NCBI GenBank assembly: GCA_963822445.1
Contig: CAWGHO010000002.1
Span: forward strand, 2,112,001 to 2,176,000
From: an uncultured Acidobacteriota bacterium
GTDB lineage: Bacteria > Acidobacteriota > Thermoanaerobaculia > Gp7-AA8
Length of the DNA: 64,000 nt
Direction of reading: 5' to 3'
Shown: in pieces, positions 16,272-62,722 of the stretch
Numbering within the stretch: position 1 is the first letter of the stretch
Layout: every line of letters starts with the position of its first letter
Translations under genes and position numbers: made by a program
The notes under the pieces: model-generated
The model's database searches: none
What the model saw: the letters and a program-made list of their open reading frames with translations, nothing else
Told to the model about the DNA's origin: nothing

Positions 16272-16469
16272 GGCTAACTACTGCCAGGAGCTGTCGCGGC
16301 CCGGCTTCGGTCCGCCGGCCGAGCCGGCTGCATCATCACCAGCGTGACGGCGTCACGGCGGTTGCAGTTCGCGGCGCGGTGCTTCGCACGTTGCTCGCGG
16401 CAACCGCCGCGCCGCTCCGGCTTCGGCACGCGGGCCCTGGCCGCGCAGCTCAGGCGATAGACGTTAGGC
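16272..16469 (+). repeat. attC 8 (family C)
   Basis: GGCTAAC...GTTAGGC. Confidence 0.9.
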
Positions 16470-16614
16470 CGACGAATCACGTTTGCCCTGACGGCGCGCT
16501 TTCCATGAAACTCCGCTTACCTGCACGCCTGCAGCGCAAGACGATCGGATCACAGCCGACGCTCTCAGTCTGCAACTCGTTACGCCGACGACAGGCTGTC
16601 GAATCCCGTATCAT

Positions 16615-17655
16615 GTGACTCCTTTGCGAAACACGCTTCTCCTACTATCTGGCGGCGCGGCTGGGAACGTGGTTCGCAAAACCGTTCTTTCGTACTTGGC
16701 TCAGCATGGCTTTGCGGTCGCGAACACATACCTCGCGTCGCGGAGGCGGTTCAAAGAGGCAGGGCTCGTCTTCCTACCGGAGCACGAACTTCGCGAGCTT
16801 TGTTCCATCACGGGGCGGGGCGCACCTGATAATTATCTTTATGGATTTAACATCGCCGAGCTCGCAGAGCAACTTCGCAAATCAAATGTGGTACTCGGCA
16901 GCATTGCATGGCCAGCAGACATTAGACGTTTACGTAAAGCCTTCCCTGATCTCTGCGCGGTTCAGGTGCGTTGGGATATCGCGCAGTTTGAGGAACTCGC
17001 CAGCCGGCGAGGCGAGTCGGCAGACGTCTTGCGGATCAAGTTAGAATACCTGCAGCGCGACGCACAACGATACAATCAGCAGTCTGGGCTGTTTGATCGA
17101 GTTTTGTGGCGCGGCAGCAATCCAGACTTTCTCACTAACCAGCTTCACGCACTGATAACGAGCATCGCCCCCGATGCTACGACGGAAGATCTTCTCCCGT
17201 CGCCGCTGGCCCCGGCCAGCTACGATCACATCGTTCTAGCGACGACCCTTGAGCGATCGGTGTTGGCAAAACGGCCTGAAGAACTGTTTCGCCTCACGCC
17301 CCGTCAGTTCGAAGAACTCATCGCTGATCTCCTTGCAGCAGACGGTTTCGACGTTGAGTTGACACCGCTGTCACGCGACGGTGGCGTGGACATTATCGCC
17401 ATTAAGAACAGTTTAGTAATGCCGCACCTATGTCTCGTACAGTGTAAACGGTATAGCCCGGCAAATCCGGTTGGCGTCGAGCCTGTGCAGAGACTATATG
17501 GCGTGCTGGCGGCGCAACGCGCGAATGCTGCGCTTATCGCTACAACGTCTCGATTTACAAGGGGCGCGCGTCAATTCAAAGAGTCCGTAGGCTTTCAGCT
17601 CTCACTTCAAGACTACCAACAAATTGTCGAATGGCTGAAGCGTGTGTTTAGCTGA
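16615..17655 (+). CDS. C9: Mrr-type restriction endonuclease with an N-terminal nucleotide-kinase-like domain
   Basis: PRQFEELIADLL...DGGVDIIA...VQCKRY...TTSRFT. Confidence 0.8.
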   Translation: MTPLRNTLLLLSGGAAGNVVRKTVLSYLAQHGFAVANTYLASRRRFKEAGLVFLPEHELRELCSITGRGAPDNYLYGFNIAELAEQLRKSNVVLGSIAWPADIRRLRKAFPDLCAVQVRWDIAQFEELASRRGESADVLRIKLEYLQRDAQRYNQQSGLFDRVLWRGSNPDFLTNQLHALITSIAPDATTEDLLPSPLAPASYDHIVLATTLERSVLAKRPEELFRLTPRQFEELIADLLAADGFDVELTPLSRDGGVDIIAIKNSLVMPHLCLVQCKRYSPANPVGVEPVQRLYGVLAAQRANAALIATTSRFTRGARQFKESVGFQLSLQDYQQIVEWLKRVFS

Positions 17656-17663
17656 ACAACGCG

Positions 17664-17860
17664 GCCTAACTTTGGTGTGAAGCTGATGCGGCCCGGCTTC
17701 GGCCCGGCAGCCGAGCTGCCTGCTTCACCGCCAGCGTGACGGCGTCACGGCGGTTGCAGGTCGCCACTCGGTTCTTCGAACGTCATTGGCGGCAACCGCC
17801 GAGCCGCTCAGGCTTCGGCACGCGGGACCGGCCGCACAGCTTACACCAAGGAAGTTAGAC
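17664..17860 (+). repeat. attC 9 (family C)
   Basis: GCCTAAC...GTTAGAC. Confidence 0.9.
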
Positions 17861-17918
17861 GCACTGACGGGAAGGAAGTCGTTGCTGACGGCCACGTCTC
17901 GCGCGAAAATGCCTGAAT

Positions 17919-19706
17919 ATGGCCTTGCCTATTCGGATCACAGGCGTCGACTTCCACAACTTCAAGGCGTTTCAGCAGTACTCGGTCACTCTTCATAATC
18001 TGAACATCATGGTTGGCCCGAACAACAGCGGGAAATCGACGATTCTGGGCAGCTTTCGTGTACTTGCGGAAGGTCTACGACGGGGTCGGAGCAAGACACC
18101 CGAATGGATAACTGCTCATGGGAAGCGTCAGCTTGGCTACACGATCCCAACGGACGCGATATCGATATCACTCGAAAACGTCCACACCAACTATTCCGAC
18201 GAGGACAGTTGGGTTAGGTTCCATCTCTCCAATGAGAACTCGCTCGATCTGTATTTCCCCCATGACGGAGGTTGCTATCTACTAACGAACAGCACAAATA
18301 AGTACGTTCGGACCAAGGCCGACTTCAAGAATGAGTTTCCCGTGACGGTCGTGCCCGTGCCGGTGCTTGGACCCGTCGAGCACGAAGAACAGGTCGTGGA
18401 ACGGGAAACCGTCCGAACTGGCCTGAACACCCATCGCGCCTCGCGCCACTTCCGCAACTATTGGTATCTCAATGACGACGGCTTCGATGACTTCGCGGCT
18501 CTAGTAGCGAGGACGTGGCCCGGAATGGAGATCGAAAGGCCGGAGCGGCCCGGCGCGATGGCACAATATCTCGTAATGTTCGCGCTGGAGAATCGCATTT
18601 CGCGCGAACTGTATTGGTCCGGGTTTGGCTTCCAGATCTGGTGTCAGCTGCTAACGCACATCTCGCGGGCGTCGGCCGACACCCTACTTGTCATTGACGA
18701 GCCTGAGATCTACCTTCACCCGGACGTTCAGCGGCAGCTCGTGTCCGTGCTGCGTGACGCCGGGCCGGACATTCTGGTTGCCACGCATTCGACAGAGATT
18801 ATGGGTGAAGCGGATCCATCCGAGATTCTTGTCGTTGACAAAACGAAGCGGTCGGCTCAACGACTTCGCAATGTAGAAGGCGTGCAAGCGGCGATGCGCA
18901 CGCTAGGCTCGCTTCAGAATTTTACGTTGGCACAACTAGCGAGGACGCGTCGAGTGGTTTTTGTCGAAGGGCTTTACGATCTCAAGATCGTTCGACGGTT
19001 TGCGCAGCGTCTTGGTCACGCTGATGTTGCGTCGGGGACACCTTTCACTCCGGTTGAGTCCGGGGGTCTCGGATCGTGGGAGCGCATTCGGGGAACCGCC
19101 TGGGGGATCGAGAAGGCGCTGGGTAGTACTCTGGCTGTAGCTGCCATATTCGATCGCGACTACATGTGTGAGGAAGAGGTCGCCGCGATGGAGGCTGACT
19201 TGGGTCAGCATCTTCGATTTGCGCACATACACGCTCGCAAGGAAATAGAGAACTACCTGCTTGTGTCGGCCGTTCTTCAACGAGCTTTGGTCCGAGCCGT
19301 CAAAGATCGCGCCGGCGACGGTGGTGCCAACGCAGTACCGCCCACGGCAATTCAGACTTTGCTTGACGAAATCACGGAGGCTGTGAAGACGGAAGTGCAG
19401 GCCCAGTACGTCGCCAGGCGATCGTCGTATCTGGCGCGCGACCGACGCGGTGCGGCAGCAATCGCTACGGAGACACTAAGGTGGTTTGAGGATCGCTGGC
19501 GCGACCTCGATCGTCGGCTCGGAATCGTACCCGGCAAGGACGTCTTGGGCACCTTGCGCGCAAAGGTGCAGGAGAAATGGGGTGTCAATCTTACTGATGT
19601 TCGGATCATTGGTGAGTTCAGACGCGATGAAGTTGCCCACGATATGGTTGCGTTGATTACCGCGTTGGAGTCTTACAAAGGTGGCAAGAAAGCGCACGGC
19701 GTCTAA
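17919..19706 (+). CDS. C10: ABC-ATPase + TOPRIM (OLD-like ATP-dependent nuclease)
   Basis: GPNNSGKST, IDEPEIYLHP, ATHS, FVEGLYD, DRD, EIENY. Confidence 0.85.
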   Translation: MALPIRITGVDFHNFKAFQQYSVTLHNLNIMVGPNNSGKSTILGSFRVLAEGLRRGRSKTPEWITAHGKRQLGYTIPTDAISISLENVHTNYSDEDSWVRFHLSNENSLDLYFPHDGGCYLLTNSTNKYVRTKADFKNEFPVTVVPVPVLGPVEHEEQVVERETVRTGLNTHRASRHFRNYWYLNDDGFDDFAALVARTWPGMEIERPERPGAMAQYLVMFALENRISRELYWSGFGFQIWCQLLTHISRASADTLLVIDEPEIYLHPDVQRQLVSVLRDAGPDILVATHSTEIMGEADPSEILVVDKTKRSAQRLRNVEGVQAAMRTLGSLQNFTLAQLARTRRVVFVEGLYDLKIVRRFAQRLGHADVASGTPFTPVESGGLGSWERIRGTAWGIEKALGSTLAVAAIFDRDYMCEEEVAAMEADLGQHLRFAHIHARKEIENYLLVSAVLQRALVRAVKDRAGDGGANAVPPTAIQTLLDEITEAVKTEVQAQYVARRSSYLARDRRGAAAIATETLRWFEDRWRDLDRRLGIVPGKDVLGTLRAKVQEKWGVNLTDVRIIGEFRRDEVAHDMVALITALESYKGGKKAHGV

Positions 19707-19897
19707 CTACTGCCAGAAGCTGGCACGGCCCGGCTTCGGTCCGGCGGCCGAGCCGCCTACATTCTTGCCAGCGTGACGGCGTCACGGCGGTTGCAGTTCG
19801 GCAGGCGTTACATGCAACTTCTCGCCGGCAACCGCCGCGCCGCTCGGGCTTCGGCACGTGGGCCCTGGCCGTGCAGCTTAGGCGATAGACGTTAGCC
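19701..19897 (+). repeat. attC 10 (family C)
   Basis: GTCTAAC...GTTAGCC. Confidence 0.9.
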
Positions 19898-20032
19898 GGA
19901 CGAATCGCGATCTGCGCGCTAGCACGCTTTCTCACGAAGCTTCGCCTCCTTGCACGCTCACCGTTAGCAGAGTTTGGTCGACGGCGCGGCGCTGGTTAGC
20001 TGAGAACACGCTAGTCGAACCATAATATCTAT

Positions 20033-21112
20033 ATGTCAGTTGACCATGAGACATATCGGCTGGTGCACTATACCAATTCACCACAGGTTATCGGCTCGAT
20101 TCTGCGCTACGGCTTCTTACTTGTCCCGAACAAACGCTACCTCATAAATGCGCTGCTCGGGGAGGATCTGTTTGCAGAACGCGAACCTCAGGAGTTCGGC
20201 ATGGTTTCATTTACCCAACTGCCGGTCGCCGAGGCTACGGCGCACCGTGAGCGTTTCGGCCGTTTCGGCATCGTCGTTTCATGGGATTGGGCACTGTCGC
20301 ATGACGCGCAGCGAGTCGTCTACGTCGACGAAGGTGGTCCGATCGCGGCGACACTCGCCTGGCTCTTCCGCCTCGCGAAGCAGGAGTTGGAGCGTGCTAC
20401 CGACGGCGCTCCAAGCTCGGAGACGCTGACAAACAAAGCGTTGGCCTTCACGAAGGGTTCAACACTGTATGCGCGCCTACTCACGCTGTACGAATACATG
20501 GAACCGGAGCGGAGCTCTGGCCAGGTCGAATGGCGAATAGTCAACAAGATCCCTCAGCACCACGATACGGGAAAAGAACGCGGTGAACTGGTCCGCGAAC
20601 TACTTGAGATTGTGAAAATGTGGAAGAACTTTGGCTCTATCCGGCTGACGCCGAACGACGTTCACGCTTTCATCGGTCCTCGCGGCGCGAAGGCCGAGCT
20701 CGAAAGTGAGCTCCCCGAAGAATTCAAATCGATACCAGTTCTCACGTATCGGTCCGGAGATCGCCTCTCGCGTCTGGGGAGAGCGCGCGAACGGGCGTTG
20801 TTCGCCCATCGCGGTCGTGAGCGCGTCGTCGAGGTCGAACGGGAGCCACCGCCAGATGTTATCTGGATCACAAAGAATTCGAATGCAGCTTACTACTTGC
20901 CAGAGGTCGGCCGGATGTGGGGCGGACGGCTGTTCATCGACGAACTTGACGCGGCCATCCGAATGATCTTTCAGTATCAAAGCACTACCGGGTTTCTTTG
21001 CGAACTCGCAATACCTGTACGCGATGCGCTATACCTGTTGAACATTCTCAAGGCGATGCAACATGACAACGGTCTCGATCGTCTCAATCCGTCGAATAAC
21101 GCCGGTCGGTAG
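20033..21112 (+). CDS. C11: AbiGi-like abortive-infection family protein with C-terminal extension
   Basis: LVHYT, ILRYGF, MVSFTQLP, H...FGRFGI...W, VVY, EWR pattern. Confidence 0.65.
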   Translation: MSVDHETYRLVHYTNSPQVIGSILRYGFLLVPNKRYLINALLGEDLFAEREPQEFGMVSFTQLPVAEATAHRERFGRFGIVVSWDWALSHDAQRVVYVDEGGPIAATLAWLFRLAKQELERATDGAPSSETLTNKALAFTKGSTLYARLLTLYEYMEPERSSGQVEWRIVNKIPQHHDTGKERGELVRELLEIVKMWKNFGSIRLTPNDVHAFIGPRGAKAELESELPEEFKSIPVLTYRSGDRLSRLGRARERALFAHRGRERVVEVEREPPPDVIWITKNSNAAYYLPEVGRMWGGRLFIDELDAAIRMIFQYQSTTGFLCELAIPVRDALYLLNILKAMQHDNGLDRLNPSNNAGR

Positions 21113-21120
21113 CGCCGGCC

Positions 21121-21317
21121 GGCTAACTACTGCCAGAAGCTGGCACGGCCCGGCTTCGGTCCGGCGGCCGAGCCACCTGCATAATCGCCAGCGGGACGGC
21201 GTCACGGCGGTTGCAGATCGGCAGGCGTTGCATGCAACTTCTCGCCGGCAACCGCCGCGCCGCTTCGGCTTCGGCACGTGGGCCCTGGCCGTGCAGCTTA
21301 GGCGATAGACGTTAGCC
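21121..21317 (+). repeat. attC 11 (family C)
   Basis: GGCTAAC...GTTAGCC. Confidence 0.9.
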
Positions 21318-23066
21318 CGACGAATCGCGCTCCACGACGGGCTTCGATCCACGCGCAACTTCCACGATGGCGTCGAGAACCTCGCGCACCTCCGGTGCAA
21401 TTTCGTCGTGTGAGACGAACTGAGCGAGTGTGTGATAGTCGCTCTTCCGCATCAAGTTAGGTAGGCCGATCCGCGCGAAGAACTTCGCAAAGACGGGATC
21501 CAGAAAATCGTCACTCGCTTTAATGTCCGCAGAGAATGGCAGCGGCCGACCAAGCGTGGCTAAAGCCGACGAAACCTCATTGATCGATTCAGTCATGGCC
21601 CGCCGGAGGCGATCGCGCTCGGCAACTTCGAATAACGGTCCTGCCATCATTCCACTGGCGTTCGATTCGGCGAATGCTAGTAATGCTCGCTGGGTGGTGA
21701 TGTAGTTCTCGAGTTCGCGTTGCTTCCACATTATCTCGCGAAGCGGCTTTCCCGTTTGCAAGGGTAAATCGACCCGATCAAACAATGCCACGCCGACGAG
21801 ATCTGGTTTTGCTTCCCGAATACCATAGAAGTGATCCCGCGCTTTGGGTGGCTGGTTCGCGACGTAGTGCACGAGTGGGCGATCGAGGATCGTCGCGGCA
21901 GGATGGTCCAAAGCGCGAGCCAGCGCCCGCAATATCGCGAGATCCGTGGAGCCCTCAAGGTAGAGCACCCAGCCGGTAACTTCTGCCTGATAATATTGCT
22001 CGAATCCGATCTCCTTTAACGCCTTCTTTAGTTGGGCGCCGCGATCGTCGATGCGGTGGGGTTTGCCAACAAATGCAACAACCACGTCGCGATCGGCAGC
22101 CTCATTGAGAATGACTTCCGAATGACTAGCCGCGACTATTTGACACCCTTGCTTAGCAGCGATGTCAGTGAGTAACTGGTACATCTCGCGTTGCCGCAGA
22201 ATCTCGAGATGGGCGTCTGGCTCGTCAAGAAGCAAGACGGTCTTCGGGTTTCGATAAATCTGTGCGAGAAGCAGAAGTATTTGCTGAAGGCCGCGGCCGG
22301 CGGATGACAGATCTAATTGGGTTCCTGACCGCTCGCGGTACGTCATGCGAATTTCGCCGCGTTCTGGTATGTATTCCGGCGGATCTAGTTGAATTCCGAA
22401 GAAACGGCGCATGTGGTTCAGCAAACTTGGCCATTGGTGACCGCCATTCTCTTTAAAAACCTCAAAGCATAAGTTCCGCAGAACTTCAGCCGTACGCCCT
22501 TCCCCGATCCTGACATTGATTGCACCGGTGTCAAGGCGGGTTTCTTGTGCAGCAAGACCTGACATCGCAGGAAGGAACACGACGTTCGTGTCGCCTGCCG
22601 CCTCAGGCACTGGCATGCGCTGCGGTGAGCGATCGTTAGTGAGACGTAACGGTCGGCAGTAAAGCGACTCCTCGTTAGCGTAATCGAACTCTAAGCCACA
22701 CTCCCATTCGCCATCGAGCGAGACACCGGAAACGATGATGTCGATACGTACGTTTTGCGTTTGCGTCTTGCCTTCAACCTTCTGGACGTCACGTACGTGA
22801 AGGTCTTTCCAAAGATGGTTCGAGGTCGGCACAGGAAGCGCGACAAGATCTCGACGGTTGATCGTGACACCAGGTCGCTTCTCGGGCGTATCGCGACCAG
22901 AACGCTTTTCGTTCCAGCGCTTTAAGCCGACGTTCCAGAGGGCGAGTGCTTGAAGGGCGGTGGTCTTCCCCGAGTTATTGGGCCCAATAAATACGACTGT
23001 CTGGCCCATCTCGACCTGTACCTCAGCGAGACGTTTGAAGTTGCGTACGGTTAAGCCGGTCAACAT
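21312..23066 (-). CDS. C12: ABC-ATPase + TOPRIM (OLD-like), inverted in the cassette
   Basis: GPNNSGKTT, LDEPDAHL, ASHS, YLEGSTD, ELENY. Confidence 0.85.
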   Translation of the reverse strand: MLTGLTVRNFKRLAEVQVEMGQTVVFIGPNNSGKTTALQALALWNVGLKRWNEKRSGRDTPEKRPGVTINRRDLVALPVPTSNHLWKDLHVRDVQKVEGKTQTQNVRIDIIVSGVSLDGEWECGLEFDYANEESLYCRPLRLTNDRSPQRMPVPEAAGDTNVVFLPAMSGLAAQETRLDTGAINVRIGEGRTAEVLRNLCFEVFKENGGHQWPSLLNHMRRFFGIQLDPPEYIPERGEIRMTYRERSGTQLDLSSAGRGLQQILLLLAQIYRNPKTVLLLDEPDAHLEILRQREMYQLLTDIAAKQGCQIVAASHSEVILNEAADRDVVVAFVGKPHRIDDRGAQLKKALKEIGFEQYYQAEVTGWVLYLEGSTDLAILRALARALDHPAATILDRPLVHYVANQPPKARDHFYGIREAKPDLVGVALFDRVDLPLQTGKPLREIMWKQRELENYITTQRALLAFAESNASGMMAGPLFEVAERDRLRRAMTESINEVSSALATLGRPLPFSADIKASDDFLDPVFAKFFARIGLPNLMRKSDYHTLAQFVSHDEIAPEVREVLDAIVEVARGSKPVVERDSSG

Positions 23067-42933: not shown

Positions 42934-43130
42934 GCCTAACTACTGCCAGAAGCTGGCACGGCCCGGCTTCGGTCCGGCGGCCGAGCCGCCTATATCGTCG
43001 TAGTTTGGGCGGCGTCACGCTGGTTGCAATTCGCCAGTCGCGGCTGCGCAACTCCTCGGCGGCAACCGGCGCGCCGCTCTCCGTCTCCACGTGGGCCCTG
43101 GCCGTGCAGCTTAGGCGATAGACGTTGGGC
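42934..43130 (+). repeat. attC 27 (family C)
   Basis: GCCTAAC...GTTGGGC. Confidence 0.9.
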
Positions 43131-43428
43131 GGACTCGGCACGAAGAGGTAGGCCCGACTTCCATTTACGCGTTGGCAGTCGCACCGACCGAAGCGGCGGA
43201 GCCGCGCGCCAAGGCGTCCGCCACAATTGTTCGTCGTGGTACCCGCCCATCCGCCGGCTCGTCCCACGTGCAGCGCGCGCGAAACACATTCTTTCGTAGG
43301 CCGGTCGCAATCGCCGCGATTGCCGCGATCCCCGCCGGCCTGTCGGCCGAGCACGCATTCCGCGTCCGTCACCATTCGGCGCGCGCGCTGCTCCCAAGTG
43401 CGCAAAGTTATGCGTGTGGCCGCCCAAC
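43124..43428. ncRNA. C28: ORF-less cassette family Y, copy 1
   Basis: Four similar cassettes; 12-bp stem 43270-43281/43380-43391 enclosing a variable segment. Confidence 0.6.
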
Positions 43429-43611
43429 AACTCACAGCAGCTGTCGCGGCCCGGCTTCGGCTCGGCGGCCGAGCCGCCTAGGCCGAACAGTACCGGCGCG
43501 GCGTCACGCCGGCTGCAGTTCGGTTCATTCGTTAATCGCCGGCAGCCGGCGCGCCGCGCTGCCGTAGCCACGCGGGCCCTGGCCGCGCAGCTGAGTGAGA
43601 TGACGTTGGGC
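43422..43611 (+). repeat. attC 28 (family D, Y-specific)
   Basis: GCCCAAC...GTTGGGC; L arms ctcac[ag]cagctg/cagctgagtgag. Confidence 0.9.
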
Positions 43612-44870: not shown

Positions 44871-45584
44871 ATGACGGACATTCCGACACCGACTCCTGCT
44901 GGTTCGACGAGCCCCGCTAACTCCCAACTCTCGGCGCCAGGCAAGTCGCTAGACGAGCGTGTTCGCGATCTCGAGGAAAACGCGAAGAAGGTCGCGCAGC
45001 GCGCCACAATAATCGCCGTACTGGCGGCTCTTTTTGGCGGAGGAGGGCTTGCCGGTACGATACAGTGGCTCGCTGGTAGTAGGCTGCGCGAAGCCGAGGT
45101 AACCTTAAGCGACCAGCAGAAAAAGATTAACGAGCAAGACATGCGTCTAAAAAGCCAGGACATGCGGCTGAAGGAACAGGACGCGCGGCTCAAGCAGCAA
45201 CTTGGCGAGCATGACGTTGCTCTAAAGGCTCAGGCGCGACAAATCGGAGAGTACGAAGTAAAGCTGAAGGGCTTAGCCTTACACCGCGACGAGTTCAACG
45301 ATCGGCTTTCGTCGTTTAACGCAGCCACGGCGTCGCTAGAACGGGGCATCGCTGCCGCGCGCCAATCTGGTTCTACGCAGGGCATTAACGCTTTGGTGCA
45401 AGAACTCATTCAGCAAAACCGCGAATTCTCGCAGTTTGCCGCACAGACTAGACGATATGTCGAAGAGTTGCCTGGCGCGCCAGGGTGGTATCGCCAAGCG
45501 GTTGCACAGGCAGAGGCGGCTTCACGTCAGCATGACCAGCACCTACAAAGAATCAAGAATGAATTATCCGGGCCGGGCTCCTAA
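44871..45584 (+). CDS. C30: TM-anchored coiled-coil protein
   Basis: GGAGG RBS; heptad repeats EQDMRLK/SQDMRLK/EQDARLK. Confidence 0.75.
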   Translation: MTDIPTPTPAGSTSPANSQLSAPGKSLDERVRDLEENAKKVAQRATIIAVLAALFGGGGLAGTIQWLAGSRLREAEVTLSDQQKKINEQDMRLKSQDMRLKEQDARLKQQLGEHDVALKAQARQIGEYEVKLKGLALHRDEFNDRLSSFNAATASLERGIAAARQSGSTQGINALVQELIQQNREFSQFAAQTRRYVEELPGAPGWYRQAVAQAEAASRQHDQHLQRIKNELSGPGS

Positions 45585-45590
45585 AACGCC

Positions 45591-45787
45591 GGCTAACTAC
45601 TGCCAGAAGCTGGCACGGCCCGGCTTCGGTCCGGCGGCCGAGCCGCCTACATTCTCTCCAGCTTGGTGGCGTCACGGCGGTCGCAGTTCGGCAGGCGTTG
45701 CACGCAACTTCTCGCCGGCAACCGCCGCGCCGCTCAGGCTTCGGCACGCGGGCCCTGGCCGTGCAGCTTAGGCGATAGACGTTAGGC
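45591..45787 (+). repeat. attC 30 (family C)
   Basis: GGCTAAC...GTTAGGC. Confidence 0.9.
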
Positions 45788-45894
45788 CGACGTACTCACA
45801 TTAGGGTGGCGGCGAGCTCTCTATGAAGCTCCGCAGTTGTGCGTCGCGCGTCGAAATTGTCGGCAATCCGTCCGTGGCATCGTCGTGCTTCGCG

Positions 45895-46240
45895 GCACGA
45901 TTCCCCCTCGCAGCTGACATCGCCTCAAGAGTGCGGGCCGCGAACAGCAAAACGCGCCACCCGCATGCGCAAGCGTTCAGTCGGTCCCTTCACGCCCTCC
46001 CACCACCCGCGGTAGACCGACTGAACGCTTGCGCATCACGCCCACCCGGCGCACGCTCATCGCGGCCCTGGCATCGACGCCCCTCCCGCCGACGCGCGTC
46101 GAACTCACGGATGCGCGCCGTGACACGGCGGTCGCAGATCGCTCCAGCCGACGGGTCGTTCGTCGCGGCAACCGCCGCGCCCCGGGCAGGGGAGCGTGAA
46201 TTCGACGCGCTCACACCCGTACCGACGCCGCTCCCGCCCC
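45895..46240. ncRNA. Structured non-coding element X, copy 2 (in C31)
   Basis: Perfect 22-bp stem 45965-45986/46015-46036. Confidence 0.6.
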
Positions 46241-46390
46241 TTGCAGGCCGCGAGATACAGGTTGGCCCGACGAACAGAAGTCGAAGTGAAATACGCCGGT
46301 GAACGCGCAGCGAGACGGGAATCAGTCAAGCGCGGCATTCGACGGGTTGACAGTCGTAACATTGGGCGACCCACTAGCCAAGAGGCTGTC

Positions 46391-47266
46391 ATGCGCTACG
46401 CCACGCTACTCTTAACCGGTCTGTTTGCTCTTCAAGGGTCGATTGCCGATGGCAAGACGCGCGCAGTGTCTCATCCAAGTGACCCGTTGGATGTTGTCTT
46501 GATGATCAAGACGTTCGGCGATCCTGGTCCCGACCAGATTTACGAAGTAGTGGCGGGGGTATATGACCATATTCCGAATCCTATGATAACGGATTTTCGT
46601 CTTAAAGATCCAGACGGGCGCGTACAGTGGGAACGGCACCATGAGTCCTATTGTTTTGACTGCAAGCCGAGTGATTGGCAGGACCCGAAATGGCGCTGGT
46701 TTTGGCTAGTCTGGCACGGCCCGCTACCCGCTGGTTGGCCGTCTGGCGTGAGCAGTTTTGAAATCAGCACAAAACGGAACGCCCAGCAAGTCACCGCCAC
46801 CGCGAAGTTTGCAGTCAATGTAGCGTCACCACCTCAACTCGGTCCTTTGGAAAGAACTGTTGTCGACGCCAACGGCGGCGTTATGCTCTTTGGAGCTTTT
46901 CCTACGCCACCTGTTGTTGCAGATATTCAGCTGTACCGGATGAAGTTAAGCGACGGATACTACATTCCGCCCGGCGCTATGTACGACCAGACTGGCGATA
47001 CCACCATTGTTGTTTGCTCTGGCGTTCGTGGCGACATCGCCAATTTGGAATGCACGACGGAGCAAGTGCGCTTGCCAGGTGCTACGAGTCATTCGAATGT
47101 CAGTTTCCATGGAGGCCGCTTCTTGGGAGATTTATGTAACGAGAACCACCGGACCGCTCTCGACAGAAGCTTGGCTTCGACCGCTAACTGCAACACCGAT
47201 GCGCCACTCGCTATGGGCAATATGCGCGACCGCTGCCATCTATTGCATCCGATTGCGCCACTATGA
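46391..47266 (+). CDS. C31: secreted hypothetical protein
   Basis: Signal peptide MRYATLLLTGLFAL; GAGG RBS. Confidence 0.65.
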   Translation: MRYATLLLTGLFALQGSIADGKTRAVSHPSDPLDVVLMIKTFGDPGPDQIYEVVAGVYDHIPNPMITDFRLKDPDGRVQWERHHESYCFDCKPSDWQDPKWRWFWLVWHGPLPAGWPSGVSSFEISTKRNAQQVTATAKFAVNVASPPQLGPLERTVVDANGGVMLFGAFPTPPVVADIQLYRMKLSDGYYIPPGAMYDQTGDTTIVVCSGVRGDIANLECTTEQVRLPGATSHSNVSFHGGRFLGDLCNENHRTALDRSLASTANCNTDAPLAMGNMRDRCHLLHPIAPL

Positions 47267-50098: not shown

Positions 50099-50297
50099 GC
50101 CCAACTACTGCCAGGAGCTGTCGGCGGGCCGTTTGCCGCGCCCGGCGCTGAAGCGCCTCGGCCGGTGTCGATTGGCCGGCGGCACGCCGGCCGACATGCT
50201 CTCGCGCCGCTGATCGCGGCGCGAACACTGCAGCCGTCGCGCCGCGCAACCGCACGCGCGTGGGGCCTCGCCGCAGCTCAGGCGATAGACGTTGGGC
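50099..50297 (+). repeat. attC 33 (family A)
   Basis: GCCCAAC...GTTGGGC. Confidence 0.9.
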
Positions 50298-50596
50298 GGA
50301 CTCGGCACTGCATCAGCGTAGGACGGACATCCATTTACGCGTTGGCAGTCGCACCGGCCGAAGCGGCAGAGCCGCGCGCCAAGGCGTCCGGCACAATTTT
50401 AGTCGTGGTACCCACCCTTCCCGCCGGCTTGTCGCACGTGCAGCGCGCGCGGACGCACGATTCGCGTAGCGAGTGACTACAGTAACTCAAGACGCAGCGG
50501 CAAAGCGGGCCTTCGGCCACGCGCGCTCCGCGCCATGCACCATTCGGCGCGCGCGCTGCTTCCAAGCGCGCAAAGTCATGCGTGTGGCCGCCCAAC
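50291..50596. ncRNA. C34: ORF-less cassette family Y, copy 2
   Basis: Same scaffold as C28; stem 50440-50451/50548-50559. Confidence 0.6.
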
Positions 50597-50778
50597 AACT
50601 CACAGCAGCTGTCGCGGCCCGGCTTCGGCCCGGCGCTGAAGCGCCTGGGCCGAACAGTACCGGCGCGGCGGCACGCCGGCCGCAATTCGGTTCATTCGTT
50701 AATCGCCGGCAGCCGGCGCGCCGCGCTGCCGTAACCACGTGGGCCCTGCCCGCGCAGCTGAGTGAGATGACGTTAGCC
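50590..50778 (+). repeat. attC 34 (family D, Y-specific)
   Basis: GCCCAAC...GTTAGCC. Confidence 0.9.
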
Positions 50779-54587: not shown

Positions 54588-54777
54588 CTACTGCCAGCAG
54601 CGGACGGCGGGCCGTTCGTTGGCCCGGCGGCCGAGCCGCCTCCAGCACTCAAAGCCGCACGGCGTCACGCCGCCTGCAGCTCGCGCCCGCCGAGAGCTCG
54701 TTAGTTGCGGCAAGCGGCGCGCCGCTTCCTGCTAGGCACTCGGGGCCTCGCCGCCGCTGAGGCGATAGACGTTGGGC
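54582..54777 (+). repeat. attC 37 (family B)
   Basis: GGCTAAC...GTTGGGC. Confidence 0.9.
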
Positions 54778-55074
54778 GGACTCCGCACGAAGACGTAGGC
54801 CCGACTTCTATTTTCGCGCTGGCAGTCGCACCGACTGAAGCGGCAGAGCCGCGCGCCAAGGCGTCCGCCACAATTGTCCGTCGTGGCTCCCGCCCGTCCA
54901 CCGGCTTGTCGCGCCTGCAGCGCGCGCGAAGCTGATTTTTCGTGGGTTTGTCGCAATCTCCGCGAAAGTCACCATCCAAGCCGGCCTGTCGGCCGAGCAC
55001 GCATTCCGCGTCCATCACCATTCGGCGCGCGCGCTGCTCCCAAGCGCAGAAGCTTATGCGTGTGGCCGCCCAAC
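54771..55074. ncRNA. C38: ORF-less cassette family Y, copy 3
   Basis: Same scaffold as C28. Confidence 0.6.
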
Positions 55075-55257
55075 AACTCACAGCAGCTGTCGCGGCCCGG
55101 CTTCGGCCCGGCGGCCTAGCCGCCTAGGCCGAACAGTACCGGCGCGGCGTCACGCCGGCTGCAGTTCGGTTCGTTCGCTAATCGCCGGCAGCCGGCGCGC
55201 CGCCCTGCCGTAGCCACGCGGGCCCTGGCCGCGCAGCTGAGTGAGATGACGTTGGGC
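55068..55257 (+). repeat. attC 38 (family D, Y-specific)
   Basis: GCCCAAC...GTTGGGC. Confidence 0.9.
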
Positions 55258-55306
55258 GGACGCAGGCACGCTCGTCTATACTCTGTCCGGCGAAAGGAAC
55301 CATCGG

Positions 55307-55849: not shown

Positions 55850-56592
55850 AAGCGGAAGGCCTTCTCAAAGCAAAATATCCGGCCGCGCTCGTGGACGCGC
55901 TTCTCGCTGCCTACCTCGAGATCGAACGCAACTATGTGCTCAAGAAGTGGAAGGCGAGCGAGCTGGATTCCGGACATTTTGTTGAGGCGTCGCGACGCAT
56001 CCTTGAGCACGAGCTCACCGGTTCTCATACTCCACTAAACCGCGCGCTCTCCTCATTTACTGACGCTGTTTTGAAGCAGTTCGAGAGCGCGACCGGTGAC
56101 GAGTCGCTCCGTCTTCTAATTCCACGAGCGCTTAAGGCTATCTACAACATCCGTAACAAACGCGGCGTCGGTCATATCGGAGCCGTGTCTCCGAACGAAA
56201 TGGATTCAACGTACATCCTATACACGTGCAAGTGGGTTCTGGCCGAGCTCGTGCGGCTCGCGTCGGGTCTTCAGCCGCACGAGACCCAGCATGTTATGGA
56301 TACGATTGTCGAGCGGCGCATCAGCGTTCTCTGGAAGGAAGCCGACGTCACGGCGGTGCTCGACCCTGGCATGTCAGCCAAAGAGCAGGCCTTGGTTCTG
56401 CTGTACGACCAAAGTCCTCAAGCGGAAGACGAACTCCGCGCGATAACGGAGTACAAGAATCCCTCGAAGTTTCGCGCGCTGCTGAAGGAGCTGCACCGGA
56501 AGAAGTTAATCTTCCGTGCTGACACTGGTAAGTGCATTATCCTGCCGCCGGGAATCACGGAGGCGGAGCGCATTCTCGCGTCCAGAAGGTAG
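55846..56592 (+). CDS. C39: HEPN-like protein with a C-terminal wHTH-like domain
   Basis: GHFVEASRR...IYNIRNKRGVGH; overlaps the upstream stop. Confidence 0.75.
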   Translation: MKAEGLLKAKYPAALVDALLAAYLEIERNYVLKKWKASELDSGHFVEASRRILEHELTGSHTPLNRALSSFTDAVLKQFESATGDESLRLLIPRALKAIYNIRNKRGVGHIGAVSPNEMDSTYILYTCKWVLAELVRLASGLQPHETQHVMDTIVERRISVLWKEADVTAVLDPGMSAKEQALVLLYDQSPQAEDELRAITEYKNPSKFRALLKELHRKKLIFRADTGKCIILPPGITEAERILASRR

Positions 56593-56596
56593 CGCC

Positions 56597-56786
56597 GCCC
56601 AACTACTGCCAGAAGCTGGCAGCGGGCCGTTTGCCGCGCCCGGCGGCCGAGCCGCCTACCGCGTCGCGAGACGCATGGCGTCACGCCGCTTGCAGATCTC
56701 GTCTTTCGTGAATCGCGGCAAGCGGCGCGCCGCTCTACCCGCACGCGCGCGGGGCCTCGCTGCAGCTTAGGCGATAGACGTTAGGC
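56597..56786 (+). repeat. attC 39 (family B)
   Basis: GCCCAAC...GTTAGGC. Confidence 0.9.
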
Positions 56787-56877
56787 CGACAAACATGCCT
56801 TAGCGTTGATGCGCGCAATCTATGAAGCTCTGCGCACTTGCACGTCGAGTCCTTCTTCGCATGGTCGTTCCTTCGCG

Positions 56878-57220
56878 GCACGTTCCCCCTCGCAGCTGAC
56901 CGTGTCGCGAGAAGGCGGGCCGCGACCAGCAAAACGCGCCTCCCGCATGCGCAAGCGTTCAGCTGGTCCCTTCACACCCGCCCACCACCCGCGGTAGACC
57001 GGCTGAACGCTTGCGCATCACAACCACCCGGCGCACGCTCGTCGCGGCCCTGACTTCGCGCAACACCCTCCCTCGCGCGTGGAACTCACGAATGCGTGCG
57101 TGACACGGCGGTTGCACATCGCTCATGCCGGAGGTCACCTTCGTCGCGGCAACCGCCGCGCCACGGCAGAGGAGCGTGAATTCGACGCGCTCCCACCCGT
57201 GCCGACGCTGCTCCCGCCCT
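56878..57220. ncRNA. Structured non-coding element X, copy 4 (in C40)
   Basis: 22-bp stem 56947-56968/56997-57018 with one G-T pair. Confidence 0.6.
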
Positions 57221-57247
57221 GGAAGCCAGGAGATACCGCAAGCGACT

Positions 57248-58222
57248 TTACTCGTGCGTCTCACGAGGCGGAGGTCGAAGCAACACAGACATCATCTTCT
57301 CGAAGGTGTATGGAAGCGCAAGGCCCGCCGCGCCTACCACTAGGACGGCGAGTAACGAATAAACGACCGTCGACGCCACGTCGCCCTTTTCCGAGAATGC
57401 GATGACCTGGCTCGTTAGCCATTGAACGATTGCAGCCACAGCACTACCTACTGCCACCAACATTCCTACGGATCGCACACTTCTCGTCACCCGGATGGAC
57501 TTGGCCGATTCGGCGCGCGCGAGAAGAAACTCCTGGAACCTCTGCCGCATCACCAATGCTAGCCAACCGCTCAACAAGAAGTGGTAGTACACGAGATCGT
57601 GCTTGGTCCTCGGCGACGGCCAGTCGAACTCTGAGCGATTGTAAAACTCAAACTTTGTATCGATAAAACTCACATCAAATTGTTGAAAGACGGCCGCTGT
57701 GCGATTCGCGCGTTCTTCGACAGAGCCGTAGATATGAAAAAGTTCCTCGGATGTGTATGAGTACAGGATCATCCGCGTTTCCGAAGCGAGGAATGTTCCC
57801 ATTGACCGGCGACGGGAGGAGTCGACACGTCCATCGCCCACGTACGCGTGCAACGCGCGAGAGAGATCCGCCGTGGTGAGGATTCGGTCGCGCACGTCAT
57901 CTTCGTAGGGCTTATCGCGGCCCTGTGAGTGCGCGGCTGCGTTGGCCTCCTTGAGAGCCTCATCGAGCACATATCCGTAGTCAGCGACGACCAGGTCGAT
58001 ACCGCCGCGCACGGCTACGGCAATCTCGTCTAAGGTCTGTTGCGAGATGAGGAAACCCTTGTCGCTCTTTTCAACGCAAATTTGTACGGGTAGCAGGTCC
58101 AGTCGCCATTCGTCGCCGGCGAATTGATGCTCAATCAGCTTCATTCGGCCATGAATACGGTCCAGTAACTTTTGGTCATCCTCCAGAAGGAGAACGCGAT
58201 AACTCTGCAACGCCATAATCAC
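57248..58222 (-). CDS. C40: receiver-like domain + C-terminal 2TM
   Basis: RVLLLEDD...IDLVVADY...ILYS; two terminal hydrophobic helices. Confidence 0.7.
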   Translation of the reverse strand: MIMALQSYRVLLLEDDQKLLDRIHGRMKLIEHQFAGDEWRLDLLPVQICVEKSDKGFLISQQTLDEIAVAVRGGIDLVVADYGYVLDEALKEANAAAHSQGRDKPYEDDVRDRILTTADLSRALHAYVGDGRVDSSRRRSMGTFLASETRMILYSYTSEELFHIYGSVEERANRTAAVFQQFDVSFIDTKFEFYNRSEFDWPSPRTKHDLVYYHFLLSGWLALVMRQRFQEFLLARAESAKSIRVTRSVRSVGMLVAVGSAVAAIVQWLTSQVIAFSEKGDVASTVVYSLLAVLVVGAAGLALPYTFEKMMSVLLRPPPRETHE

Positions 58223-58291
58223 GGAACGATAGCATACGGTGTGTCGCGCGGTGGGAACCGATGTCGTCCGGAGGACCAGAAGCGGTCAGCG

Positions 58292-58489
58292 GCCTAACTA
58301 CTGCCAGCAGCGGACGGCGGGCCGTTCGCCGCGCCCGGGGCTGAAGCCCCTCGTTCGTCCCGAGATGCACGGCGTCACGCCGCTTGCAGATCGCGCCCGC
58401 CGACAATCGCGTTGGTTGCGGCAAGCGGCGCGCCGCTTATCCCGCATGCGTCGGGGGCCTCGCCGCCGCTGAGGCGATAGACGTTCGGC
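58292..58489 (+). repeat. attC 40 (family B)
   Basis: GCCTAAC...GTTCGGC. Confidence 0.9.
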
Positions 58490-58892
58490 GGACTTGAACA
58501 CGAGGTGTCGGGCCTTCAGGAGATAGAAATTCGCGAAAGAAGACCCGTGTGAAGAGCCGTGGCAATCGGTGTTCTACAACACGTGGAGTTTGTCGATCCT
58601 CTCGCTGCTTCTCCCTCGGAGACGCTGAGCGATGTTGCATCGGCGCGCAGATCTCATAGGATCTGCCAGCGTCGCGCGCGCGATCTTGGTGTACGGCTGT
58701 ACACCCGCGTTCATGGGAACCCGGGTTCCACTCTCTTTGAGAATCTTACTACCCGTCGTCCGTCGAGCTCGTAGAAACAATGGGGACGCGTGGACGTAGT
58801 CGCTTCTTGAACGCGCCGACAAGCCCGGGTCTCTTTCCGCGGTCTACACTGCGTAGATCGTCGCAGGGGCCGCGGTTCCTCGAGAGGCAATC

Positions 58893-59219
58893 ATGAAGAA
58901 AGCGTACGCATTCCTCGCACTTCTCGGCGCATTACTACCACTTTCCGTACTTTTGCCCTGGGTCCTCGCACACGGCTTTGCGCCGCGCCGGTTCATCGGG
59001 GATCTCTTCGTAAACCGCGTGAGTGGGTTCTTCGCCATGGACGTTGCTGTCTCGGCGGTTGTCGTCGCAGTCTTTGCGTACGCGGAGGCAAGAAGCGGCC
59101 GGTTGAGAAGGCCGTGGGTCCCTATCTTGGCCACGCTCCTCATCGGTGTCTCTTGCGGGCTACCGTTACTGTTCTGGGCGCGCGAGACTTCGGGCGAGCT
59201 TCCTCGCCGCACAAGCTGA
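58893..59219 (+). CDS. C41: DUF2834-like membrane protein
   Basis: LFVNRVSGFFAMDV...GVSCGLPLLFWARE. Confidence 0.8.
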   Translation: MKKAYAFLALLGALLPLSVLLPWVLAHGFAPRRFIGDLFVNRVSGFFAMDVAVSAVVVAVFAYAEARSGRLRRPWVPILATLLIGVSCGLPLLFWARETSGELPRRTS

Positions 59220-59300
59220 TCGGTATTGCATCGGCCGACACTGCAAAGAAGGTGGTGGGCGCGTCTCTTTATCGGGCGCACGAGTACAGTCGATCGAGCC

Positions 59301-59500
59301 GCCGAACTACTGCCAGGAGCTGTCGGCGGGCCGTTTGCCGCGCCCGGCGCTGAAGCGCCTCGTTTGTCCTTGAATGGCCGGCGTCACGCCGGCCGACATG
59401 CTCTCGCGCCGCTGATCGCGGCGCGACTCTCTGCAGCCGTCGCGCCGCGCACCCGCTCGCACGCGGGGCCTCGCCGCAGCTCAGGCGATAGACGTTAGCC
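59301..59500 (+). repeat. attC 41 (family A)
   Basis: GCCGAAC...GTTAGCC. Confidence 0.9.
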
Positions 59501-59677
59501 GGTCGTGACTTCGAGTGCCCGTGACTTGCTCGTGCGAAGGAGCGAGGCGAGTGTGTGGATCCGCGTCGGAGGCATGGCGTGTCGTTGGCTCACTTTCGAA
59601 CGTGCGACGCTTCCGGCACGACGCATCTGCCGTCCCCCTTTGGGATTGATTGGTTGGCCCGACGTATACTTCGCGCC

Positions 59678-60569
59678 GTGAAAAGACCAAAGATCTTCAT
59701 CAGCCATGCATCCGAAGATCGATCTTTCGTGGAGCAGTTGGTTGCTCGCTTGAAGTTAGACGGCGTCGACACGTGGCTGGACACCGTAGAGATTCGTGTG
59801 GGTGATTCGATCTATGAAAGGATCAACGCCGGTCTCGAGCAATCTGACTTCTTTGCTGTAGTGCTCAGCAATGCCAGTGCTGCTTCGGAATGGGTCCTGA
59901 ATGAGTTGGCCTCCGCTACGTCGCTTGAGAAGCTGCGTAAGCGCAAGGTGTTTGTGTTGCCAATCCTTTTGAACGAATGTGACGTGCCCCCTCTGCTACG
60001 CGACCGCCGGGTTGCGAACTTCAAAGAAGATTTCGACTCTGCGTATCAGGAGTTAATCGATGCCATTCGGCACCACTACGCCGAGCATCATCCGGACGTT
60101 GACATCTCCAAGCTAAAGATGGGTGAGTTGAGCGAGGCAGTAGTCGAAGACGCTGCGCGAGATCCGCGGCACCTGCAACGGCTCGCCCCGCGGCATTTTG
60201 AGGAGCTCGTGTCTAAGTTGCTGTCTCGGGCCGGGTATCAGACCGAACTAAACTCCGTCCTTCTCCGGAGCGTGGCGGGACATCATTGCCACACGCGAAG
60301 CCCTGCTGCCGGGACTGGCCTCCGACCGCTTTCACGTGACATGCAATTCCTATATACGACCGATTCGCCCGGCCGAAATCGCATTGCTCGCTCTGCGTGA
60401 TCGTGACAACGAAACTAAGCTGGTCCTCGTTACCCGATCTAAGCTCACGCGAGAAGCTCAGGAAGCAGCTGCGAAACTCGGAATCGACTTGATTGACGCG
60501 CAGACACTGGGCGAATGGATTCGAAAGCTCCTCGATGTGCGACGTGGGGCGCGCGGCGACGCCGGCTAA
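59678..60569 (+). pseudogene. C42: TIR + Mrr-like nuclease fusion, frameshifted near 60270-60280
   Basis: IFISHASED..SEWVLNEL; PRHFEELV; continues in another frame as DIIATR...VLVTRSKLT...IDLIDA and ends at TAA in R''. Confidence 0.7.
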
Positions 60570-60762
60570 CTACTGCCAGGAGCTGTCGGCGGGCCGTTCG
60601 CCGCGCCCGGCGCTGAAGCGCCTCGTTCAGCGCTGATTGGCCGGCGGCACGCCGGCCGACACGCTCTCGCGCCGCTGGTCGCGGCGCGAACACGGCAGCC
60701 GTCGCGCCGCGCAACCGCACGCACGCGGGGCCTCGCCGCAGCTCAGGCGATAGACGTTGGGC
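60564..60762 (+). repeat. attC 42 (family A)
   Basis: GGCTAAC...GTTGGGC. Confidence 0.9.
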
Positions 60763-61058
60763 GGACCCGGCACGAAGAGGTAGGCCCGACTTCCATTTAC
60801 GCGTTGGCAATCGCACCGACTGAAGCGGCGGAGCCGCGCGCCAAGGCGTCCGCCACCATTTTTCGTCGTGGTACCCGCCCGCCCGCCGGCTTGTCGCACT
60901 TGCAGCGCGCGCGGAGCAGCGATTTGCGTAGGCCGGTGCCCACAAAACTCGAGACGCAACGACGTAGCGGGCCTTCGGCCACGCGCGCTCCGCGTCGTGC
61001 ACTATTCGGCGCGCGCGCTGCTCCCAAGCGCGCAAAGTTGTGCGTCTGGCCGCCCAAC
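60756..61058. ncRNA. C43: ORF-less cassette family Y, copy 4
   Basis: Same scaffold as C34. Confidence 0.6.
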
Positions 61059-61240
61059 AACTCACAGCAGCTGACGCGGCCCGGCTTCGGCCCGGCGCTG
61101 AAGCGCCTTGGCCGAACAGTACCGGCGCGGCGGCACGCCGGCCGCAAATCGGTTCATTCGTTAATCGCCGGCAGCCGGCGCGCCGCGCTGCCATAGCCGC
61201 GCGGGCCCTGGCCGCGCAGCTGAGTGAGATGACGTTAGGC
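61052..61240 (+). repeat. attC 43 (family D, Y-specific)
   Basis: GCCCAAC...GTTAGGC. Confidence 0.9.
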
Positions 61241-61501
61241 CGACCCATCAAAATTCGCGTGGCGGCACGCTACAATGAAACTCCGCTTACTTGCACGACC
61301 ATCGCAAGCAATCCGCGCTGGCACACACAGCGCTCTCTCGGCGCGAGGCTGGTCCAGTCACTTGCATTGCATGTCTCCGTCTAGCCTAGCATGGCGCAAG
61401 GTGAGGTGCGGCGGCTACCGTCTTTCGCTCTGGCGCGCTGGAGGACAGCCTCTCTCTTCCCTCTTCCGCTTCGACCTCCATTATGCTGTCATAGCTGCGC
61501 G

Positions 61502-62299
61502 ATGAGTTGGCTCCACACAGACTTTGTCGATGATCGGCTAGGCGGAATCGGCACTCGGTTTGAGCGCATGGGCCGCTGCATATATTGCAACGGCTTGATG
61601 ACGCATTTCGACCAGATCGATGGCTATCAAGTTGATAAGTACCGCATGCGGCGCGCCGGCAAACGTTTTCTTGACGATGACAGGTATGTGGATCGATGCT
61701 ACCGATGTGGCTGGTGGCATTCGTACAGCGAAAGACAAAAGTACAGTGATCATATTGATTGCTTCTATGCGTATGGATCACTGAAACAACTGGACTTGGC
61801 TGACGTGGAGACTCCAATCGATGAAATTAAGAGCTACTTGGCGGCAAAGTTTGAGGCTTGGCGAGGCTTAGATCCTATTCGCTTCGAATCCGTAGTGGCA
61901 TCCGTCTTCAGAGATCTGCGATACGTCGCAAGAGTCACCGCACGCACAGGGGACCGCGGCATAGATGTCTATCTTGACGGCCCGAATGACACTCTCGTAG
62001 GTGTACAGGTGAAGGCCACAATGCGTGCCATTAGAGTGGAGCAAATCAATGCGTTAACTGGGGCGTTGATCATTAATGATTGTACGGCGGGAGTCTTTGT
62101 TACAACCTCTCGGTTCCAACCTGGCGCGGTTGCTGCAGCGAAGAGCGCGACGAAACGAGGATTCCCAATTACTTTAGTCGACGCTGAGGCCCTGTTGGAT
62201 GCGCTCCAAGTGATACATTCAGCGAAGGAGCTCGATCCTTTGGACCCACGCATGCCGTGGAATCGGGTAGATCCAGTGCTGAGGTATTCGCTTCTCTGA
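61502..62299 (+). CDS. C44: Mrr-type restriction endonuclease with N-terminal Zn-ribbon
   Basis: CIYC...CYRCGWW; FESVVASVF, GDRGIDV, VQVK, VTTSRF. Confidence 0.85.
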   Translation: MSWLHTDFVDDRLGGIGTRFERMGRCIYCNGLMTHFDQIDGYQVDKYRMRRAGKRFLDDDRYVDRCYRCGWWHSYSERQKYSDHIDCFYAYGSLKQLDLADVETPIDEIKSYLAAKFEAWRGLDPIRFESVVASVFRDLRYVARVTARTGDRGIDVYLDGPNDTLVGVQVKATMRAIRVEQINALTGALIINDCTAGVFVTTSRFQPGAVAAAKSATKRGFPITLVDAEALLDALQVIHSAKELDPLDPRMPWNRVDPVLRYSLL

Positions 62300-62348
62300 T
62301 CATCTCATCGGAGCAGTGTCCCGAATGGCACGGCACAGATGACCCGCG

Positions 62349-62545
62349 GCCTAACTTTGGTGTGAAGCTGGCACGGCCCGGCTTCGGCCCGGCAGCCGAG
62401 CTGCCTCGTTCAGCGCCAGCGTGGCGGCGTCACGGCGGTTGCAGTTCGCCAGTCGTGGCTGCGCAACTCCTTGGCGGCAACCGGGGCGCCGCTGCGGCTT
62501 CGGCACGCGGGACCGGCCGTGCAGCTTACACCAAGGACGTTAGGC
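62349..62545 (+). repeat. attC 44 (family C)
   Basis: GCCTAAC...GTTAGGC. Confidence 0.9.
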
Positions 62546-62722
62546 CGACGAATCGCGGTTTCCGTGAGAGCACACTCCCCATGAGGCTCCGCCGACCGGC
62601 ACGCTAAGCGCTTGCTGCGGTCGCCGTGGCAGATCGCAGACCGCTGGGAGATCGCCAAGCTACCGCAGCGATACCGACTGGCAACTGCAAACCACATGAT
62701 GCGTCAACATCGTGTCCGCTCC

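Follow-up and report, generated by a model that had tools for sequence, protein, structure and literature searches.

A conserved non-coding module at the recombination junction of integron cassettes in a genus of soil Thermoanaerobaculia

The DNA examined here is a 64,000-nt stretch from an uncultured Acidobacteriota bacterium (hereafter the window; positions 2112001-2176000 of contig 2 in a 6.0 Mb genome of three contigs), and it harbours a chromosomal integron in which a short repeat, designated L1, opens part of the gene cassettes. The integrase gene intI (window positions 6092-7057, plus strand) has the same orientation as the cassettes and encodes Phage_integrase and Phage_int_SAM_4 domains; the attI crossover lies downstream at 7405 (plus strand), attI-type junctions being present at 12 loci of the genus. 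From 7405 on, the window contains 46 cassettes and 45 full attC sites, which belong to a main array of about 107 kb and about 87 cassettes spanning window positions 7405-64000 and continuing to around position 2226600 of contig 2. More attC clusters are found outside this main array, and the genome totals 105 cassette starts, which were re-derived with an attC profile. The attC sites are about 195 nt long, exceeding the usual 57-141 nt, and extend from R'' GCCTAAC to L' GGCGATAGAC and then GTTAGGC, the crossover falling between the first G and the TT, as exemplified by the site upstream of cassette C9 (16267-16473, plus strand). The locus is identified as an integron by a tyrosine-recombinase gene standing beside an array of imperfect-palindrome attC sites (R'' RYYYAAC, R' GTTRRRY) and by the fact that the bases following the crossover belong to the downstream cassette and pair with its own R''. 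Over 85 array cassettes the reverse complement of the R'' extension matches the cassette's own 5' box at 324 of 425 variable positions (233 ± 6 in shuffled data), whereas the box of the next cassette gives only 238, no match, and the boxes of adjacent cassettes in the main array are uncorrelated (309 vs 306). In these 85 cassettes R'' pairs with the 5' terminus of its own cassette over up to 9 nt (GTTAGSCSG), which makes it possible to tell the attC to which a given 5' end belongs. A single complete attC is inverted within the array (contig 2, 2205447-2205646, minus strand).

The initial annotation had drawn attention to ATGAA-type motifs lying +41 to +43 from the crossover in nine cassettes, and these positions were confirmed on the re-derived cassette starts. 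With the G of GTT at 16463, 19891, 35088, 43605, 45781, 53649, 56780, 61234 and 62539 (C9, C11, C21, C29, C31, C37, C40, C44 and C45, respectively), the ATG is found at +42, +43, +42, +43, +42, +43, +42, +41 and +42, C11 having ACG instead of ATG. The positional enrichment is also evident across the genome. When the first 110 nt of all 105 cassette starts are scanned for YATGA, 25 occurrences are obtained, of which 13 sit at the neighbouring offsets 41 and 42 (zero-based numbering), against a mean of 0.23 per offset. The 12-mer motif alone is not enriched over the whole window (18 matches vs 13.2 ± 3.4 expected), yet it clusters at a fixed offset, so that the signal is positional. One match to CTGAAGCTCCGC on the minus strand (8514-8525) lies 44 nt from the reverse complement of the R'' of C1 and thus mimics the leader offset on the opposite strand; it falls inside an open reading frame (ORF) and is probably due to chance.

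The reading of the nine leaders as one motif stands for six of them. C9, C11, C31, C40, C44 and C45 are homologous over some 65-85 nt from the crossover, whereas C21 (35088-35140), C29 (43605-43660) and C37 (53649-53700), all on the plus strand, have CTATGAA alone at the same offset and share only YATGAA with the rest; the L1 profile matches C21 without significance (E = 1.9) and gives no score for C29 and C37. The start GTTAGCCGGAT of C37 is common to C21 and to one cassette beyond the window, and these three may represent a distant third leader type. Likewise, the cargo of the six homologous cassettes is unrelated at the DNA level, as had been claimed, with the reservation that the proteins of C9 and C44 both contain an Mrr_cat domain, in which they are 27% identical over 136 amino acids (aa). 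The observation that cargo lies in both orientations was borne out, the longest ORF being on the plus strand in C9, C11, C31 and C44 and on the minus strand in C40 and C45. Some of this cargo is of defence type, namely the Mrr_cat restriction-type nucleases at 16615-17655 and 61391-62299, and a weak AbiGi-like match was seen at 20033-21112.

The ATGAA motif is therefore the core of L1, a non-coding repeat module of about 70-85 nt situated just 3' of the crossover in about one seventh of the cassettes. It lies inside the cassette, directly 3' of the extended R' box (GTTAGSCSGACGAA). Profile matches in the window, all on the plus strand, were obtained at 16463-16547 (C9; 65.2 bits, ATG at 16505), 19891-19961 (C11), 45781-45843 (C31), 56780-56849 (C40), 61234-61302 (C44) and 62539-62609 (C45). 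The profile search retrieved 15 copies in this genome, each beginning at profile position 1-3, which corresponds to the crossover, and no free-standing copy, the best match elsewhere having E = 0.28. Homology is limited to the first 70-85 nt and ends near +78 to +85 in all copies; the remainder of the L1 cassettes is mutually unrelated and usually includes an ORF of 110-360 aa, so these cassettes do not qualify as non-coding cassettes in their entirety. One tandem pair of L1 copies, 106 nt apart, was found at locus L138. Elsewhere, on contig 1 (1228038-1229566), the two halves of an attC are separated by about 1.3 kb of inserted DNA, and the next cassette starts with a shortened L1-like sequence.

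L1 is confined to chromosomal integrons of a single soil-dwelling genus of Thermoanaerobaculia. The core pattern, with up to two mismatches, is present in 15 of the 35 genomes of the genus (a tally that includes G041, unpublished, and G002, both without a match), and a reversed control pattern gave no matches in the genus. When 401 genomes of the phylum were scanned, the fetched matches outside the genus lacked the GTTAGGC context, one match in a sister genus not being among those fetched; the fetched ones are chance. Scanning one genome per species with the exact pattern returned 11 stretches, nine of them labelled Thermoanaerobaculia or Acidobacteriota, and a scan of metagenomes yielded 42 contigs. 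Altogether, 15 rows from this genome, 37 from the genus and 58 from other metagenome-assembled genomes and metagenomes (two of the latter not full-length: one cut by a contig end, one a chance match) were reduced to 86 distinct copies, each with at least 250 nt of downstream sequence.

All full-length copies begin at the crossover whatever their upstream partner, which may be attI or an attC with any of at least four different L' ends. Since the start stays fixed while the partner varies, L1 belongs to the downstream cassette, as integron logic predicts. Two other placements were considered and discarded. No link was found between L1 and the type of the upstream attC, the 'tacaccaagg' type being merely common in other genomes. 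Nor does L1 behave as a sequence flanking attI on its right or as a marker of the array end: it is present in the first cassette of 3 of the 12 recognisable integrons of the genus (one of these loci, L061, comes from the unpublished genome G041), compared with about 14% of all cassettes, and the array end is only weakly core-like. Conservation within L1 is block-wise, reaching about 90% in the box (positions 1-16) and in the core (31-62) and 40-60% in the spacer. Copies outside this genome were mostly found by means of the core pattern, a bias that overstates core conservation there and has to be set against our interpretation, whereas the same blocks are seen in the 15 profile-found copies of this genome. 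The conserved core (GGCACGCTTTCCATGAAGCTCCGCGTAC) may be a recognition site for a protein.

The sequences flanking L1 bear on its origin. The box ahead of L1 matched the distal R'' perfectly in 11 of 11 cassettes of a first set and in 42 of 47 overall, corresponding to 225 of 235 positions (180 ± 4.5 in shuffled data, with none of 5000 shuffles reaching 225); part of the five misses may be misplaced R'' calls. This match places L1 within an ordinary cassette. In 16 of the 86 copies, a further box of generic R' type is found at +99 to +129, and it agrees with the cassette's own first box at 72 of 80 variable positions (55.8 ± 3.0 in shuffled data, 0 of 10000 as high). Between +80 and +160 there are 11 matches to the own box with 11 or more of 13 bases identical, and between +160 and +240 there are none. 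In C9 the second box (16579-16591, plus strand) is identical to the first at 12 of 13 bases. Variant-matched direct repeats of this kind, 11-15 nt long and starting at the G of GTT, are recognised in 16-18 of the 86 copies; they vary in length and extend at times 11-28 nt into the attC. An L1 subtype with the spacer ...CATCT... is flanked in different cassettes by differing box pairs (GCCGG, GCCCG or GGCCG), each pair being internally matched. In genome G023, L1 is followed by 28 nt of the attC 3' end and then by the box again, at locus L126, which now has attI upstream, the second box is preceded by 12 nt from the end of an attC, and a few other tails after L1 align with the 3' end of the attC profile. 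Dozens of mutually unrelated cassettes carry this one conserved module precisely where recombination takes place.

The explanation that we place first, and then only tentatively, is that L1 is a repeat peculiar to this genus that was inserted, in cassettes already complete, at the border between attC and cassette, the border being duplicated in the process. L1 would be copied in at this point, repeating 11-15 nt of the box and, for part of the copies, also the terminal 11-28 nt of the attC. As the crossover lies upstream of L1, the module would thereafter travel with the cassette, and the offset of +41 to +43 would be fixed because the entry point is fixed. Later integrase moves would exchange everything to the left of the crossover, so that the repeat would now appear to begin exactly at the crossover except where no such move has taken place, as in G023. 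The second box, being functionless, would decay, leaving only about one fifth of the copies in which it can still be seen. This scheme as a whole, in which the repeated boxes would have arisen by duplication at entry, is one that we hold somewhat below an even chance. It is tempting to go further and to propose an undescribed copy-in process at the crossover, which would write the module into the double-stranded R' box of finished cassettes and duplicate the junction, although we regard this more specific proposal as distinctly unlikely; possible agents would be the integrase of the integron and a host factor that works where this enzyme cleaves.

Several observations weigh against an origin by duplication. 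No filled and empty alleles could be paired: the C9 cargo protein has one distant match in the genus, a search with the cargo DNA of another cassette (contig 2, position 2209370) gave no match, and an all-against-all comparison of the collected loci returned only the pair L108/L054. A recognisable second box is confined to the 16-18 of 86 copies mentioned above, and we know of no transposase that would generate a variable-length duplication of 25-45 nt. No terminal inverted repeats of L1 are visible in the alignments, inspected without a dedicated inverted-repeat search, and no RVT_1 reverse transcriptase was found in this genome, which is 94.7% complete, control genomes being positive in the same test. 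Two loci, moreover, do not have the expected arrangement. At L108, an L1-less homologous cassette of another genome begins at a point that aligns with a box lying inside the L1 cassette, about 220 nt from its start; this internal box differs from the first box, and it is the first box that the distal R'' matches. At L034, conversely, the distal R'' matches the second box and not the first. Both look like products of fusion or mosaic formation and not of a simple duplication.

Cassette fusion is accordingly the strong rival, ranked second and on balance unlikely. L1 would then be the 5' end of a small ORF-less cassette whose attC has collapsed, the remnant (box, L1 and attC relic) having been joined to the next cassette. 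The variable-length attC 3' relics ahead of the second box fit this reading, as do the internal box of L108, unlike the first and aligned with the start of an L1-less homologue, the second box of L034 and the existence in at least four genomes of ORF-less units composed of a leader and the element X described below. That attC collapse does happen is indicated by a collapsed site (R'' GGCCTAA, 8 nt, R' GCTAGGCC) directly upstream of a lone L1 cassette on contig 1 (~227135-227161; locus L020, near 1440-1467), which lies far from the integrase gene. Fusion, however, predicts a first box related neither to the distal attC nor to the second box, given that the boxes of neighbouring cassettes do not correlate, whereas 42 of 47 cassettes show the former match and 72 of 80 positions agree in the latter. 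Nor was an intact mini-cassette made of L1 and an ordinary attC found among the L1 copies with a locatable next attC, the nearest approaches being the L1-X units and one cassette of 625 nt.

Element X was central to a further model put forward in the initial annotation, according to which attC, leader and X form a precursor of about 650 nt that is variably truncated when genes are captured, the leader being a footprint of cassette genesis. With a length of about 400 nt, X folds strongly (z = -4.05). Its first hairpin, H1, has 41 consensus pairs, of which 12 show compensatory double changes and thus support the pairing, its second hairpin is homologous to the attC core, and it ends in a junction resembling L'/R'. 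From these features we consider X a separate, attC-derived structure with no recognisable R''. This genome has eight copies, each of them located close to a cassette start within the array, and six other genomes of the genus have X. In the window it was located, always on the plus strand, at 45878-46262 in C31 (hairpin H1, attC-core-like hairpin and L'/R'-like end) and at 56860-57240 in C40, whereas C24 (38111-38530) and C36 (51841-52270) carry a shorter leader, L2, followed by X. L2 is the usual leader of X.

Some parts of the precursor model held. The leader is on the cassette side of the crossover and in the circular cassette would adjoin the cassette's own attC, so the argument that attC, box and leader are contiguous is sound, and the pairing of the first box with the distal attC agrees with it. 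Leader-type modules and X do occur together, as the ORF-less units of several genomes attest (these are non-coding cassettes over their whole length); a full X accompanies L1 in C31 and C40, a single case in G023 has just the initial third of it, and C1 retains a short leader with the first ~30 nt of X. The model as a whole is nevertheless improbable. The leader does not run directly into X in C31 and C40, about 35-50 non-conserved bases lying between them, and instead of a graded truncation series, a scan of 40 L1 cassettes with the X profile (not counting C31 and C40) found no full X, the first third in one and no remnant in 39. X is normally led by L2, and L1 homology ends at one place, neither of which fits a single attC-leader-X precursor. 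A search for free-standing copies near reverse transcriptase or recombinase genes had been suggested, but neither a lone L1 or X nor, as stated, an RVT_1 gene was found in this genome. Matched second boxes and attC relics after L1 are not predicted by the model either. Since the box ahead of L1 is the partner of the cassette's own attC and a second box often follows L1, the module would have been added to existing cassettes, not left behind by genes captured into a precursor, and the notion of a genesis footprint is mostly unsupported.

An equally doubtful alternative is that L1 serves expression, either because its ATG opens a short peptide (M-K/R-L-R-V...) or because it acts as a promoter or 5' untranslated region for cassettes far from the integron promoter. 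The ATG is kept in 74 of 86 copies, early-codon substitutions are often conservative (K/R, V/L/I) or in third position, and where cargo is in plus orientation its ORF begins about 60-100 nt past L1. On the other hand, the ORFs opened by this ATG range from 8 to 159 aa and have no similarity past about eight codons, no Shine-Dalgarno sequence was found ahead of the ATG, and the homologous core of L2 reads CCACAACGC or CCACAACGCTCCGCGTCCTTG, without an ATG; hence L1 lacks the ribosome-binding site and conserved short ORF of a leader peptide. Coding on the plus strand was rejected on these grounds, and coding on the minus strand because alignment inspection showed the GGAG-N4-ATG frame to be broken by 1-nt changes in spacer length. 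About half of the cargo lies in the opposite orientation. Prediction found no sigma-70-type promoter or terminator in L1, and no fit to sigma-54 or extracytoplasmic function (ECF)-type promoters was seen on comparison by eye with consensus sequences. The consensus fold of 25 copies has only seven pairs (-1.36 kcal/mol), all internal and just one with a double change, Rfam gave no match at gathering score in the window and none at E up to 5 over 45500-46400, and a search for pairing between L1 and the sequence ahead of the cassette's own R'' found no conserved or complementary flank. Finally, chance or recent common ancestry of whole cassettes is highly improbable and already refuted as a general explanation, for although C9 and C44 share L1 subtype, attC type and Mrr_cat domain and several copies across genomes are the same cassette, 13 of 25 YATGA occurrences fall at two offsets, the reversed pattern is absent from the genus, the cargo DNA of the six L1 cassettes is unrelated and the identity between C9 and C44 amounts to only 27%, within a single domain.

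Besides the L1 cassettes, the array contains a family, Y, of cassettes of 478-481 nt with its own attC type (L' GAGTGAGATGA), present in 12 copies, some in tandem. Four lie in the window (43124-43604, 50291-50771, 54771-55250 and 60756-61233) and eight beyond it on contig 2 (2177672-2222789). No convincing ORF was seen in the Y cassettes, which are non-coding over their whole length, and they are predicted to fold strongly, a 12-bp GC stem enclosing a variable centre.

How cassettes are built and remodelled is an open question, and the array described here shows that their 5' ends are modular. The same cargo start (GCGTCGCATTTGGCGCGG...) stands behind differing 5' segments of 22 and 42 nt at window positions 8747-8800 and at contig 2 position 2191929, a further sign of this modularity. 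If the duplication reading holds, it would provide a concrete, testable process at the crossover other than the classical cut-and-paste of the integrase; and if modules are indeed copied in, cassettes would be extendable in modules at their 5' ends, which would offer a route for assembling new cassette content beside the attC. Even under fusion, a conserved 'leader' ahead of cassettes need not be an expression signal, and the nine bases that open a cassette can serve to match it to the attC that belongs to it.

Several integron-associated elements invite comparison with L1. Insertion sequences of the IS1111-attC group and group IIC-attC introns insert within attC, carry or derive from transposase or reverse transcriptase genes and are not known to produce a long duplication. 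L1 resembles them in being extra DNA that occupies one constant place at the recombination junction of numerous unrelated cassettes, and differs in lying 3' of the crossover, in its length of 70-85 nt and in having neither visible inverted termini nor an Rfam match; this last feature, together with the lack of RVT_1 in the genome, argues against a group IIC-attC intron remnant. As for a miniature inverted-repeat transposable element, the seven fold pairs of L1 are internal, terminal inverted repeats were not seen in the alignments (no dedicated search was made), and no autonomous partner with the same ends was found, the best profile match away from a cassette start being that at E = 0.28. In class 1 resistance integrons, fused cassettes arise through loss of an attC, which turns two units into one mobile cassette with attC relics at the join. 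Relics of attC are seen here too, but fusion does not predict a first box that is both the partner of the distal attC and the same as the internal box, as observed for L1. Short leader ORFs of the ORF-11 type in attI1 and promoter-bearing ORF-less cassettes are also known; like ORF-11, L1 is a short conserved sequence with an ATG that opens the cassette region, and unlike either it has no ribosome-binding site, conserved peptide or promoter consensus and precedes cargo in both orientations. The closest description in the literature searched concerns chromosomal integrons of Vibrio, which contain paralogous non-coding cassettes, described by Boucher et al. (2006; PMC1382264) as multi-copy, restricted to a single genus and conserved between species, and discussed there as selfish or as useful to the integron. 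The leader-X units and the Y family fit that description, whereas L1 is a 5' module attached to unrelated cargo and to different attC types and is often bracketed by two R' boxes. Full-text searches of articles turned up no description of a conserved 5' cassette module or of a duplicated R' box. A 5' module common to cassettes with differing cargo and attC and bracketed by a double R' box would thus be new among the non-coding elements associated with integrons.

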